This document shows, in pieces, positions 21,001 through 27,000 of a stretch of DNA of 27,162 nucleotides (positions within the stretch are counted from its first letter, which is position 1; each line of letters opens with the position of its first letter). Source of the DNA: a virus (lineage: Duplodnaviria; Heunggongvirae; Uroviricota; Caudoviricetes). The stretch lies in the IMG/VR virus record IMGVR_UViG_2526164602_000031. The stretch is one strand, 5' to 3'. Position numbers: made by a program.

Positions 21001-24000
21001 GTAAAGTTTGTGCAGCAATTTTGTCCGCAGCCATTTGTCTGGCCGTATCCGGTGTGCCTGCATGGGCGTCTGAGCATCAGTCCACGCTGAGCGCAGGATA
21101 TCTTCATGCCAGTACGGACGCTCCCGGCAGCGATGATCTGAACGGGATTAACGTGAAATACCGTTATGAGTTTACGGACACACTGGGGCTGATTACGTCC
21201 TTCAGTTATGCCAACGCCGAAGATGAGCAAAAAACGCATTACAGCGATACCCGCTGGCATGAGGATTACGTGCGTAACCGCTGGTTCAGCGTGATGGCAG
21301 GGCCGTCTGTGCGTGTGAATGAATGGTTCAGTGCGTATGCGATGGCGGGTGTGGCTTACAGCCGTGTGTCGACTTTTTCCGGGGATTATTTCCGCGTAAC
21401 TGACAACAAGAGGAAAACGCACGACGTGCTGACCGGAAGTGATGACGCTCGCTACAGCAACACATCTCTGGCGTGGGGGGCTGGCGTGCAGTTTAACCCG
21501 ACCGAATCAGTGGCCGTTGATGTCGCTTATGAAGGCTCCGGCAGCGGTGACTGGCGCACTGACGGTTTCATCGTGGGTGTCGGTTATAAATTTTGATTAG
21601 TAACACAGCGTTATGACAGCCCGCCGGTTCAGGCGGGCTTTTTTGTGGAGTGGGTATGGCAGCAGTACAAATATCAGGCGTGCTGAAAGATGGTGCGGGA
21701 AAACCAATACAGAACTGCACCATTCAACTGAAAGCCAGACGTAACAGCACCACGGTGGTGGTGAACACGGTGGCCTCTGAAAATCCGGATGAGGCAGGGC
21801 GTTACAGCATGGACGTCGAGTATGGTCAGTACAGCGTCACTCTGTTGGTGGAGGGATTCCCGCCATCACATGCCGGGACCATCTCCGTGTATGAAGATTC
21901 TCAACCGGGTACGCTGAATGATTTTCTCGGTGCCATGACGGAGGATGATGCCCGTCCGGAGGCACTGCGTCGTTTTGAACAGATGGTGGAAGAAGCAGCG
22001 CGTCACGCAGAGGAGGCGAAGAAGAATGCCGGAGAAGCAGAGACGTCCGCGAGGAATGCCGGCATATCAGCCAGTAAGGCGGAAGCGAGCGCCGCAAATG
22101 CTGATACTTCAGCAGAGGATGCATCGGAGTCAGCCCGGCAGGCGGCAGAAAGTGCAGCCTCTGCAAAGAAGTCAGAGGAAGCGTCCTCGTCCTCAGCCTC
22201 TGAGGCCGCTCAAAAAGCCAGTGAGTCATTACAAAGTGCAACAGATGCCGAGTTGTCAAAAAAGACGGCAGAAAGTGCAGCCGGTAATGCAGCCAGGGAT
22301 GCAACGACCGCAACAGAAAAAGCCCGGGAATCAGCAGAAAGCGCACAGTCAGCGGAACAAAGCAGAATAGCGGCGGAAGACGCCGTAAACAGAATTCCCA
22401 CCGTGGTGGGGCCTCCCGGACCAAAGGGGGAACCGGGTCCCGCGGGTCCTCAGGGGCCGAAGGGAGATAAAGGAGAGCGTGGAGACACCGGTCCGGCAGG
22501 GGCAACCGGTGAACGGGGACCGGGAGGAGATACAGGTCCGGCAGGTCCGCAGGGGCCGAAAGGCGACAGGGGAGAGCGGGGAGAGACCGGTCTGACAGGA
22601 AGTACAGGTCCACAGGGGCCAAAGGGAGATACCGGGGCAACAGGTCCGGCAGGACCGCAGGGACCGAAAGGGGAAACAGGTGCGGCTGGCCCGGTGGGGG
22701 CTACCGGACCTCAGGGGGCGAAGGGCGACCCGGGGGAGACACAAATACGGTTCCGTCTGGGGCCGATGAGAATTATTGAGACAAACAGCTATGGCTGGTT
22801 CCCGGGTACAGATGGTGCGCTCATCACCGGACTGACCTTTCTTGACCCCAAAGATGCCACACAGGTTCAGGGGATGTTTCAGCATTTGCAGGTCAGATTT
22901 GGTGACGGGCCATGGCAGGATGTTAAGGGACTGGATGAAGTGGGCAGTGATACAGGCAGAACTGGAGAATGACATGAATATTTTGAGAAAGCTTATGCAG
23001 AGTCTGTGCGGTTGCGGAAAGCATGATGACTGTGAAAACGGACGGTCACTTACAGCACAATTGCGACTGGGACCGGCAGACATTCTGGAGTCAGATGAGA
23101 ATGGCATTATTCCGGAGCAGGACAGGGTAATCACACAGGTGGTGATACTGGATGCAGATAAAAAGCAGATACAGTGTGTGGTAAGACCGCTGCAAATCCT
23201 GCGTGCTGACGGGACGTGGGAAAATATTGGCGGGATGAAGTAACCCGACAGCTTCACAAAACCGGAGTCCGGCTCCGGTTTTTGTTGTCATGTCCGGTGG
23301 ATGTTTGTTAGGAAAGCAAAGATGGCAAAACTGCTGGAGGTTTTGTGGTTGAGTATGCCAATATAATTAATAGATTAAAGAGTTAGTTGTGAAGAAAATA
23401 TGGATAAACAGGACGACGAATGCTTTCACCGATAAGGACAACTTTCCATAACTCAGTAAATATAGTGCAGAGTTCACCCTGTCAAACGGTTTCTTTTGCA
23501 GGAAAGGAATATGAGTTAAAGGTCATTGATGAAAAAACGCCTATTCTTTTTCAGTGGTTTGAACCTAATCCTGAACGATATAAGAAAGATGAGGTTCCAA
23601 TAGTTAATACTAAGCAGCATCCCTATTTAGATAATGTCACAAATGCGGCAAGGATAGAGAGTGATCGTATGATAGGTATTTTTGTTGATGGCGATTTTTC
23701 AGTCAACCAAAAGACTGCTTTTTCAAAATTGGAACGAGATTTTGAAAATGTAATGATAATCTATCGGGAAGATGTTGACTTCAGTATGTATGACAGAAAA
23801 CTATCAGATATTTATCATGATATTATATGTGAACAAAGGTTACGAACTGAAGACAAAAGAGATGAATACTTGTTGAATCTGTTAGAGAAAGAGCTGAGGG
23901 AAATTTCAAAGGCGCAGGATTCTTTGATTTCTATGTATGCAAAGAAAAGAAATCATGCATGGTTTGATTTCTTCAGAAATTTAGCCTTATTAAAAGCAGG

Positions 24001-27000
24001 AGAGATATTCAGGTGCACATATAATACAAAGAATCACGGTATTTCATTCGGGGAGGGGTGTATCTATCTTGATATGGATATGATACTTACAGGTAAGCTT
24101 GGTACAATATATGCTCCTGATGGAATTTCAATGCATGTGGATCGTCGTAATGATAGTGTAAATATTGAAAATAGTGCAATAATTGTTAACCGTAGTAATC
24201 ATCCTGCTCTACTTGAGGGACTTTCTTTTATGCATAGTAAAGTAGATGCTCATCCATATTATGATGGTTTGGGGAAAGGAGTTAAGAAATATTTTAATTT
24301 TACACCATTACATAATTATAATCATTTTTGTGACTTTATTGAGTTTAACCACCCTAATATAATCATGAACACAAGTCAGTATACATGCAGTTCATGGTAA
24401 ATGAATTTGATATAGTTTATTTTGTTGTAATAAATGATTTGCAGGGTATTAGATATAAACATGAAAATTCCCTCATTACAGTCCAACTTCAACTTTTCCG
24501 CCCCGGCAGGATACTCTGCTCCCATTGCTCCTAATCGTGCTGAAAATGCCTATGCGGATTACGTTTTGGATATAGGTAAGCGAATACCACTTTCCGCAGC
24601 AGATTTAAGCAACGTATACGAAAGTGTAATACGCGCCGTCCATGACAGCCGTAGCAGGCTTATCGATCAGCATACAGTCGATATGATCGGCAACACTGTA
24701 CTTGATGCTTTGAGCCGATCACAGACATTTCGTGATGCCGTAAGCTATGGCATTCATAATGAGAAGGTACACATTGGTTGCATTAAATACAGAAACGAAT
24801 ACGAGCTTAACGAAGAATCTTCTGTCAAAATTGATGATATTCAATCACTAACCTGTAACGAATTATATGAATATGATGTCGGGCAAGAGCCAATTTTCCC
24901 CATTTGCGAAGCAGGAGAAAACGATAACGAAGAGCCTTATGTCAGTTTTAGTGTTGCGCCAGATACTGACTCTTATGAGATGCCATCGTGGCAGGAAGGA
25001 CTGATTCACGAGATTATTCATCATGTTACTGGATCTAGCGATCCATCTGGAGATAGTAATATAGAGTTAGGACCCACCGAGATTCTCGCACGTCGTGTCG
25101 CTCAAGAACTGGGATGGAGTGTTCCCGACTTCAAAGGATATGCAGAGCCAGAACGTGAAGCTCATCTTAGGCTACGTAACCTGAATGCCCTTCGACAGGC
25201 TGCCATGAGGCATGAAGAGAATGAGAGGGCTTTCTTCGAAAGGCTGGGTACGATCAGTGACCGATATGAGGCGAGTCCTGATTTCACAGAGTATTCCGCT
25301 GTGTCTAACATAGGATACGGATTTATCCAGCAACATGATTTTCCTGGATTGGCTATCAACGATAATTTACAGGATGCAAATCAGATCCAACTGTATCATG
25401 GCGCCCCTTATATTTTTACATTTGGGGATGTGGACAAACACAATCAGCAATGATTCGTCTTTGCAGTGACATAAGGTTACTATTCATACATTTTAACGGA
25501 GTTGATGATGGGTAATCGTGCAACATTGTATGTAAAGGCAATTCCCCTAATTTTACTGTAGTAAGTGAACATGGCCGGAACGAGACTATCAGCATCATCG
25601 GCTTCGGCCCAGTAAAAAGAGGCTCGGAAAAATGCACAATAGGCATCACACGTCATGCATGGATTCAAATTGTACATAATTCAACAGTACAGCTATAAAT
25701 CGTAAAGAAACTGCAGTACGTTGTGCACAGAAAAGTACCGTGATTCACTATTGTACAGGTCCATTGCAGCAACAATATTTTGTGAATTTTGCGTGAGAGA
25801 AAGAAAAGGAATAATTTGTATATAAACAATTGATTAATCAATTGCTGGAAAATAAATAAAACTGATAATTAAAGGCTTAAAGCTTGTATTAAATCATATT
25901 TAAAATTTTTTGTTTTAAATGCAGCGTGTTATTGTGTTTTTTTTAATCTATCGGTCTGGTACTTGTAATCAGTGAGTATATCGCACCACTTCAGGATGCT
26001 GCAGATTTAGATATTGCGACGGATGAGCAGACATCGTTACTGGCGGCATGGAAGCAGTATCGTATGCCGCTCAATCATGTTGATACGTCTGTATCTCCAG
26101 ATATCGAGTGACCGGTAATACCTGCGTTATAGTTCGTAAACGTTCGTTTGATGGGATGCTGGAAGGATGAATTAGTTGCCAGATACAAAAAGCAAGAGTT
26201 CATTTCTAATTTTTGTTGCCATGTTAGGGGGGATGTTTGTTAAGGAAATTTAGATGGGTTTATTTTGAAGGTTGAAATGTATGTTATCGCCATATTCTGT
26301 AAATTTGGGATGTTCATGGAATTCTTTAACCAGAAACCTGACTTCGCCTGATAATCGTGTTTTATCCTCTGTAAGGGATGCTGCCGTTCATTCTGATAAT
26401 GGGGCGCAAGTAAAGGTTGGCAACAGAACATATCGTGTTGTTGCCACCGATAATAAGTTTTGCGTTACAAGAGAAAGTCATAGTGGTTGTTTTACTAATC
26501 TGTTGCACAGGCTGGGATGGCCTAAGGGGGAGATTAGCAGGAAAATTGAGGTCATGCTGAATGCATCACCAGTGAGCGCTGCTATGGAAAGAGGCATTGT
26601 TCATTCGAACAGACCTGATTTACCTCCTGTTGATTATGCACCGCCAGAGTTACCGAGTGTGGACTATAACAGGTTGTCAGTACCTGGTAATGTTATTGGC
26701 AAAGGGGGGAACGCTGTAGTATATGAAGATGCTGAGGATGCAACAAAAGTCCTGAAGATGTTTACTACATCTCAAAGCAATGAAGAGGTGACAAGCGAAG
26801 TTCGTTGCTTCAACCAATATTATGGTGCCGGGAGTGCAGAAAAAATATATGGCAATAATGGTGATATTATTGGTATTAGAATGGATAAAATAAATGGAGA
26901 ATCGCTTTTAAATATTTCGTCCTTGCCAGCACAGGCTGAGCATGCTATTTACGATATGTTTGATAGACTGGAGCAAAAAGGAATTCTTTTTGTCGATACA

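Follow-up and report, generated by a model that had tools for sequence, protein, structure and literature searches.

The DNA analyzed here, called the window throughout, is a stretch of 27,162 nucleotides (nt) (IMG/VR virus record IMGVR_UViG_2526164602_000031) that comprises the end of an Escherichia coli O157:H7 lambdoid prophage of the Sp3/CP-933K type, adjoining the bio operon. In sequence comparisons the window is 100% identical to many O157 chromosomes. At the identical chromosomal locus, the Prokaryotic Genome Annotation Pipeline (PGAP) places, in this order, J, lom, a tail fibre gene, a Phage_fiber_C gene, nleB2, nleC, a YkgJ pseudogene, a tfa pseudogene, and nleH1-1, followed past the end of the window by insertion sequence (IS) debris, nleD, ybhB, and bioA. 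The subject of this analysis is a short element found upstream of two of these effector genes, nleB2 and nleH1-1, which a first-pass annotation had described as two copies of 47 nt. The parts of this element and the genes that frame it are as follows.

22974-23243, plus strand: last tail fibre gene of the late operon, encoding an 89-amino acid "phage tail fiber C-terminal domain" protein (PGAP; Pfam PF06820, Phage_fiber_C, E = 5e-36).
23255-23285, unstranded: inverted repeat resembling an intrinsic terminator hairpin, ACAAAACCGGAG-TCCGG-CTCCGGTTTTTGT, the only inverted repeat of at least 8 nt between the tail fibre stop codon and nleB2.
23279-23310, plus strand: core, copy 1, TTTTTGTTGTCATG-TCCGGT-GGATGTTTGTTA (alignments; invariant columns in a five-way alignment of nle upstream regions).
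23311-23325, plus strand: subgroup leader, copy 1, GGAAAGCAAAGATGG (five-way alignment, locus comparison).
23420-24400, plus strand: nleB2, first gene of cassette 1 (PGAP of the identical locus; list of open reading frames).
26185-26216, unstranded: decayed hairpin, ACAAAAAGCAAGAGTTCATTTCTAATTTTTGT, with only the A-run and T-run flanks left (fold of -6.5 kcal/mol, z = -0.7).
26210-26242, plus strand: core, copy 2, TTTTTGTTGCCATG-TTAGGGG-GGATGTTTGTTA (alignments, pattern count).
26243-26257, plus strand: subgroup leader, copy 2, AGGAAATTTAGATGG (five-way alignment, locus comparison).
26281-27162, plus strand: nleH1-1, first gene of cassette 2, with a Shine-Dalgarno sequence, AAGG, at 26268-26271 (PGAP).

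Both copies are present where the first-pass annotation had placed them, at 23279-23325 and 26210-26257. The sequence GGATGTTTGTTA occurs exactly twice in the 27-kilobase window, compared with an expectation of 0.14, and, apart from itself, the nleB2 upstream region matches nothing in the window, on either strand, as well as it matches the nleH1 upstream region. A local alignment of these two regions scores 44, compared with 16.6 ± 2.4 (maximum 27) in 500 shuffles, and the element is the only significant similarity between them. The proposed identity of ∼85% holds for the core (28 of 33 positions, 85%; 23279-23310 aligned with 26210-26242) and is too high for the full spans, where a global alignment yields 39 identities in 49 columns (80%), three of them gap columns. 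Weak collinear similarity reaches ∼50 nt further upstream, extending the aligned spans to 23227-23325 and 26159-26257, with the similarity of the added part alone being marginal (44 of 1000 shuffles reach its score). The distances to the start codons, estimated earlier at about 95 and 24 nt, were measured as 94 nt (nleB2 ATG at 23420) and 23 nt (nleH1-1 ATG at 26281).

The 47-nt element consists of two parts that differ in conservation. Its first 32-33 nt, the core, are universally conserved, and its last 15 nt (..AGATGG) are the leader of one subgroup only, being common to nleH, nleB2, espS, and cif-like genes and absent ahead of nleG, nleL, and psr-like cargo. Past AGATGG, the similarity of the nleB2 and nleH1 leaders is not significant (908 of 1000 shuffles are as good). 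The nleB2 leader has an extra insertion of ∼15 nt, holding a small hairpin, which is absent from the nleH, espS, and cif-like leaders and which partly accounts for the different spacing to the two start codons. A small inverted repeat, CAAAAC-N8-GTTTTG, lies at 23326-23345 inside this insertion. No inverted repeat was found inside the core itself.

The element is not merely a pair of sequences, as the first-pass annotation had presented it, because both copies belong to a large family. Of 5426 complete E. coli genomes, 708 contain matches to a 65-nt query made of the hairpin plus the core; together these genomes have 7650 matching places (median 12, maximum 17 per genome). The nleH-type copy is present in 690 genomes. 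Among IMG/VR prophages, the pattern TTGTTGYCATGT-N4-9-GGATGTTTGTTA identified 62 loci, and a looser pattern at least 120. The consensus of the core is TTTTTGTTG(Y)CATG, 5-7 variable nt, and GATGTTTGTTA. Absence of the element upstream of other nle genes would have counted against the first-pass annotation; it was found upstream of many other effector genes. The first open reading frame past the core is nleB2, one of several nleH alleles, espS (also annotated as "Ibe" in cluster names and phage annotation), nleC, or one of some others that include IS-disrupted copies. At least six NleG variants (Pfam PF06416), a HECT-type E3 ligase like NleL, and a LuxR-like 180-amino acid protein (cluster names) are also encoded behind the core. 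EspS, the LuxR-like protein, and the NleG variants received no NCBIfam name and were named via Pfam and clusters. The element stands ahead of a cassette's first gene rather than ahead of each effector gene; in the window, nleC has no separate copy, and the pattern count gave no further core match there.

Because searches based on the core force the core to look conserved, a second sample of 200 hairpins was anchored on the hairpin alone. In this sample, 185 of the 200 hairpins are followed by TTGNNA, 18 nt, and TA, with most of the remainder explained by IS insertions or a different junction. Agreement with the consensus among the 51 unique hairpin-anchored sequences is ∼95% in the two blocks of the core, 71% in the 6-nt center, and 50% after the TA. 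In these sequences the hexamer takes the forms TTGTCA, TTGCCA, TTGGCA, TTGACA, and TTGCAA, which differ at positions 4 and 5 only. In 55 of 56 unique sequences, 18 nt separate it from TGTTA, which none of them has lost. Conservation ends abruptly right after ...TGTTA, and the sequence beyond depends on the cargo.

To the left of the core, homology continues in most loci through the hairpin into the same Phage_fiber_C gene, the type found at 22974-23243 and the usual left neighbor of the element in IMG/VR loci, leaving the nleB2 copy without a separate left boundary. The core is also kept where its left context is different or decayed, as in two loci with tfa-type ends (L068 and L102), at O157 nleH1-1, and in Escherichia albertii, where nleH copies have a core behind unrelated or decayed left flanks (unrelated upstream sequence in L143). 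Adjoining tail fibre relics degrade while the core persists.

The hairpin ahead of nleB2 (23255-23285) lies just to the left of the 23279-23325 span and overlaps it by 7 nt. It has perfect 10-nt arms (23258-23267 and 23273-23282; 12 of 13 positions pair if a bulge is allowed), a predicted RNA fold of -17.5 kcal/mol (z = -3.3), and TTTTTGTT directly after it, the features of an intrinsic terminator. As had been observed earlier, the nleB2 copy starts in the T-run of this hairpin. At the nleH1-1 copy, an inverted repeat of at least 8 nt was looked for and not found, and the features of an intrinsic terminator are lacking. In intact relatives of the nleH1-1 arrangement (L068 and L102), the 3′ end of tfa is complete and is followed, after a spacer, by an intact hairpin whose stem differs (AAAAACGGAG/CTCCGTTTTT in L068; AAAAACTGGA-GTTAATT-TCCAGTTTTT in L102), then by a T-run and the core. 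That structure and A/T flanks are kept while the stem sequence changes is the pattern expected of a terminator. In the annotation of phage 434, terminators are placed after J, after lom, and at the homolog of this hairpin, after the last tail fibre gene. A scan for promoter and terminator consensus sequences returned nothing at either copy and also missed the nleB2-copy hairpin, probably because pairing of the A-run with the T-run consumes the T-run that the scan seeks after a stem. Rfam covariance models gave no match over either copy.

A conserved sequence containing a 13-base pair (bp) inverted repeat was reportedly described by Garcia-Angulo and colleagues in 2012 as essential for nleH1 and nleB2 transcription. 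In enteropathogenic E. coli (EPEC) E2348/69, the hairpin-core unit of the window is also present upstream of both nleH and nleB2. EPEC nleH lies only 105 nt past a tail fibre gene, and the hairpin is the only inverted repeat of at least 8 nt in that interval. EPEC nleB2 is preceded by a tail fibre gene relic, the hairpin, and the core; the hairpin there has perfect 13-nt arms (ACAAAAACCGGAG / CTCCGGTTTTTGT) and is the only well-paired inverted repeat upstream of the gene. By elimination, we strongly infer from these sequences that the hairpin is the inverted repeat of the 2012 study. According to a review, the NRIR (nle regulatory inverted repeat), a motif common to a subset of effector genes, is part of the nleB2 regulatory region of EPEC, and nleB2 is Ler-independent and repressed by GrlR and H-NS (PMC7142665).

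The first-pass annotation had noted that regulatory repeats have been reported upstream of subsets of nle genes, and had suggested that the element could be a common cis-regulatory site. Both points are supported: the NRIR is such a repeat (PMC7142665), and the only inverted repeat upstream of EPEC nleB2 and nleH1 abuts the element. If the hairpin is the NRIR, the 47-nt element would be a conserved stretch starting within the right arm of that hairpin and extending downstream. The element and the NRIR are alike in their position upstream of nleB2 and nleH1 and in being common to a subset of effector genes in attaching-and-effacing strains. They differ in that the 47-nt span is not the inverted repeat, overlapping only the T-run of its right arm and otherwise containing the downstream core, and in that the inverted repeat is decayed in the O157 nleH1-1 copy, where the core remains.

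Between nleB2 and nleH1-1, the window contains four further features that bear on how this locus was assembled.

24434-25453, plus strand: nleC, which begins 33 nt past nleB2 (list of open reading frames, PGAP).
25564-25677, minus strand: YkgJ pseudogene (PGAP).
25590-25719, plus strand: fragment of the 5′ end of chromosomal ykgJ plus the ykgJ/ecpE intergenic region (90% identity over 131 nt to K-12).
25956-26132, plus strand: relic of the 3′ end of tfa, a tail fibre assembly gene (PGAP pseudogene).

The nleH1-1 copy of the element thus sits behind a tfa relic, a decayed hairpin, and a ykgJ-derived fragment. In the tfa relic, TGG has changed to TGA at 26109-26111, ahead of the ancestral stop codon at 26130-26132; intact tfa homologs in L016, L068, and L102 read ...DIEWP... 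before their stop. Nakamura et al. (2021, PMC8112680) described a sequence of this ykgJ type as a prophage-borne attB ("attB-in-PP_2") and connected it with phages that carry nleC and with these effector loci. The succession of tfa relic, decayed hairpin, and ykgJ att-type fragment ahead of nleH1-1 indicates that the effector locus is made of two phage-end cassettes in tandem, with the ykgJ-derived fragment (25590-25719) marking the seam between them. The first-pass annotation had offered, as its second alternative, that the element is a footprint of the recombination event that brought in each effector cassette; in agreement with this, the element always lies at the junction between a tail fibre 3′ end, intact or relic, and variable cargo, and the nleH1-1 copy marks the second phage-end cassette.

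Other prophages contain related arrangements. Locus L016 has three such heads, two of them behind tfa 3′ ends, and a separate tail fibre C-gene relic directly upstream of nleG that has neither hairpin nor core after it. The PP4 prophage of EPEC E2348/69 (L221, 14019-18543) has, in order, a tail fibre gene, the unit, nleG, a tail fibre gene relic, the unit, and nleB2, nleC onward. Compared with EPEC PP4, O157 lacks an nleG cassette between two units, and nleH1-1 is full-length in O157 and nleH a fragment in EPEC PP4; this difference is a natural example of the gain or loss of a cassette between repeats. An effector-free context of the element was also sought. The best phage match, the classical laboratory coliphage 434 (L219, OL657226.1, 20967-25030), has the tail fibre end, hairpin, and element as in the window and then a decayed version of the same effector locus, consisting of an nleB pseudogene, nleC, a C-terminal nleH1 fragment, an IS remnant, and an nleD-like protease, followed by attP and int.

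The loci in which these units are found resemble exchangeable effector loci, in which effector cargo lies at the end of lambda-like prophages, downstream of the tail fibre genes and beside att sites, is composite, and is linked with a ykgJ att in the case of nleC (PMC8112680). The element occupies the position expected for a boundary of such a locus, between the last tail fibre gene and variable effector cargo near the prophage end. The published concept differs in that it covers the locus, and neither the 32-nt core nor the hairpin is named as its left border.

Several additional features of this part of the prophage were observed. Within the tail fibre gene, positions 22418-22714 hold three 99-nt tandem repeats plus shorter GGxCCxxxGGG units, which encode collagen-like Gly-X-Y stretches. 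A perfect 18-nt palindrome, CAATTGATTAATCAATTG, at 25827-25844 might represent an att core or a site bound by a protein; the surrounding sequence, from ∼25780 to ∼25950 between the ykgJ fragment and the tfa relic, is very AT-rich. Within the tfa relic, 41 nt (25966-26006) match the K-12 yagU-ykgJ intergenic region at 88%. The Rfam model IS009 (RF02111) gave a sub-threshold match over the relic at 25916-26092 on the plus strand (76 bits compared with a gathering score of 117; E = 9e-17), and this small RNA candidate may itself be a relic of a tail fibre assembly gene beside an old att site.

Based on the variation and spacing of the two blocks, the core looks like a σ70 promoter, with TTGNCA, an 18-nt spacer, and TGnTA. 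The candidate promoter elements assigned in this way are the following.

23285-23290, plus strand: TTGTCA, candidate -35 of copy 1, matching TTGACA at 5 of 6 positions (from the hexamer variation).
23306-23314, plus strand: TG-T-TAGGAA, candidate extended -10 of copy 1, 18 nt past the candidate -35 (from the conserved spacing).
26216-26221, plus strand: TTGCCA, candidate -35 of copy 2, with a 19-nt spacer to the extended -10.
26238-26246, plus strand: TG-T-TAAGGA, candidate extended -10 of copy 2.

Transcription from these candidates is predicted to start at ∼23320-23322 for nleB2 and ∼26252-26254 for nleH1-1, on the shared AGATGG. Across cargo types, the smallest distance from the end of the core to the start codon is 37-38 nt. 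For nleH, this geometry is favored because it is the only one that leaves the Shine-Dalgarno AAGG (26268-26271) inside the mRNA. A different assignment, with TTGTTA as the -35 and a cargo-specific -10 (TATTTT), is disfavored for nleH, where it would yield a leader of ∼8 nt without a Shine-Dalgarno sequence.

Taken together, we consider it probable (roughly 70%) that this repeat is the head of effector cassettes at the tail fibre end of lambdoid prophages in attaching-and-effacing E. coli, composed of a terminator hairpin and a promoter core. The full unit would comprise a tail fibre 3′ end of the Phage_fiber_C or tfa type, a hairpin of the terminator type set between an A-run and a T-run, a core of ∼32 nt that begins in the T-run, and a cargo-specific leader plus the first effector gene. 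In a lysogen, the hairpin would stop transcription from the tail fibre genes, and the core would serve as the promoter region from which the first cargo gene is expressed in a repressed prophage, a "moron" layout; the activity of the core would, according to the literature, depend on the adjacent inverted repeat. Cassette 1 (nleB2-nleC) would stand behind the intact tail fibre gene, and cassette 2 (nleH1-1 onward) would have brought its own tfa relic, decayed hairpin, and core. The repeated units would also supply homology for the gain, loss, or swap of cassettes. The two alternatives of the first-pass annotation would then hold at once, as the evidence supports a shared cis-regulatory head that is also a marker, and likely a substrate, of cassette accretion.

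Lambdoid morons such as lom and bor are, in the Hendrix-type model, extra genes of the late region that have their own promoter and flanking terminators and are expressed from the repressed prophage. The order of terminator, core, leader, and gene proposed here is alike, as is the presence of terminators after J, lom, and the last tail fibre gene of phage 434; the difference is that a single head, consisting of hairpin and core, is common to many unrelated cargo genes and is repeated about 12 times per genome. The unit also resembles an ordinary Rho-independent terminator of a tail fibre operon in having a G+C-rich stem and then a T-run right after the last late gene, and in keeping its structure with different stems. 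It differs in that 30 nt past the T-run are also conserved and persist where the hairpin has decayed, so a terminator alone does not explain the element.

Several points weigh against this interpretation. Variable stems with a retained structure fit a terminator better than a site for a sequence-specific activator. The assignment of the hairpin as the NRIR is drawn from elimination and from the 13-nt length of its arms in EPEC nleB2, which equals the 13 bp reportedly given for the published repeat. In O157 nleH1-1 the inverted repeat is decayed, so either the repeat is dispensable there or the promoter is weakened. The candidate -10 is weak: T1 and A2 are its only fixed positions, -7 lacks a T, and the bases at positions 3-6 depend on the cargo. 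A simple promoter consensus scan also flags nothing at the element. Part of the conservation simply reflects descent, most copies sharing recent ancestry with the adjoining tail fibre gene. Finally, the strict core pattern had no matches in the contigs of representative genomes, and a looser pattern matched E. albertii and one Escherichia sp., with no match in the Citrobacter rodentium representative; ∼14 further matches in unrelated taxa look like chance.

Among other explanations, the one that fares best, as a possible though unlikely account that is not exclusive of a promoter-bearing cassette head, is that the core functions mainly as an operator bound by a specific transcription factor, either an NRIR-dependent activator or one of the LuxR/GadE type, with the real promoter located in each cargo leader. 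Two conserved blocks at fixed spacing around a variable center suit a bipartite protein site, the candidate -10 within the core is weak, a LuxR-like gene is among the cargo, and nleB2 has a perfect TATAAT at 23363-23368, ∼50 nt past the core, that could be such a promoter. The second block, GGATGTTTGTTA, also resembles the gadA promoter sequence TTAGGATTTTGTTATTTAAA save for a 1-nt offset. This likeness consists of a 7-mer, TTTGTTA, and an offset 4-mer, GGAT, could have arisen by chance, and is too weak to identify a GAD box (a GadE-type site). For nleH, moreover, only 38 nt separate the core from the ATG, too few to hold both a promoter entirely past the core and a leader with a Shine-Dalgarno sequence.

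It is improbable that the core is a passive footprint, namely the last stretch of phage backbone ahead of the cargo, copied along with stacked phage ends and having no role in expression. Such a footprint would account for the leftward homology through the hairpin into the tail fibre gene, for the tfa relic ahead of the nleH1-1 copy, and for the tail fibre relics at cassette heads in L016 and EPEC PP4. It would not account for retention of the core where the left flank has decayed or been replaced and neighboring relics have degraded, nor for two blocks ∼95% conserved at fixed spacing around a freely varying center, and the conserved motif region is reported to matter for nleB2 regulation (PMC7142665).

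Very improbable, in our estimate, is the proposal that the core is a fixed acceptor promoter at which lambdoid phages of attaching-and-effacing E. coli capture effector genes at a defined site by a dedicated, integron-like mechanism; if this were true, each newcomer gene would be placed at once under a common control sequence. More improbable still is the related idea that effector cassettes are captured site-specifically at the core, as at the attI of an integron. Both proposals draw on the shared point of divergence of at least six unrelated leader classes (GGAA.., AGTAGATG.., TGACTCCC.., TGAAGCC../ATGAAGAC.., TTAGAGTG.., and AAGCTATTT..), directly after ...TGTTA and within the putative -10, but the same boundary is expected where functional constraint simply ends. 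In addition, the element is not associated with any dedicated recombinase, the right-hand cassette boundary lacks a matching repeat (for example, there is no core-like sequence at 25757, where the window and L016 rejoin), and some junctions fall elsewhere, in tail fibre relics or shared leaders.

The notion that the nleB2 copy is what remains of a protein-coding gene, which derives from a PGAP "hypothetical protein, missing N-terminus" at the equivalent of 23245-23352, from "hypothetical protein" or "tail assembly protein" features over the homologous spot in many genomes, and from a frame open for 36 codons, is rejected as exceedingly improbable, because copies differ by 1-nt indels (an A-run of A4, A5, or A7, a T-run of T5 or T6, and a center of 5-7 nt), the span crosses a terminator hairpin, and conservation ends in mid-frame; given the indels, this pseudogene looks like a propagated annotation artifact.

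Much of this biology is already known. Exchangeable effector loci of lambdoid prophages were reportedly described by Tobe and colleagues in 2006. The loci have been in print since 2006 and the regulation since 2012, and the present results mostly confirm known biology. The cassette head proposed here explains how a single mode of control, separate from that by Ler, can extend to unrelated effectors of different prophages. It likewise accounts for the growth and shrinkage of effector loci, with cassettes being stacked and exchanged via their repeated heads. The decayed repeat at O157 nleH1-1, the varying stems with a kept structure, the TTGNCA-18 nt-TGnTA arrangement, and the presence of about 12 copies per genome are details that could sharpen questions about the NRIR-dependent factor.

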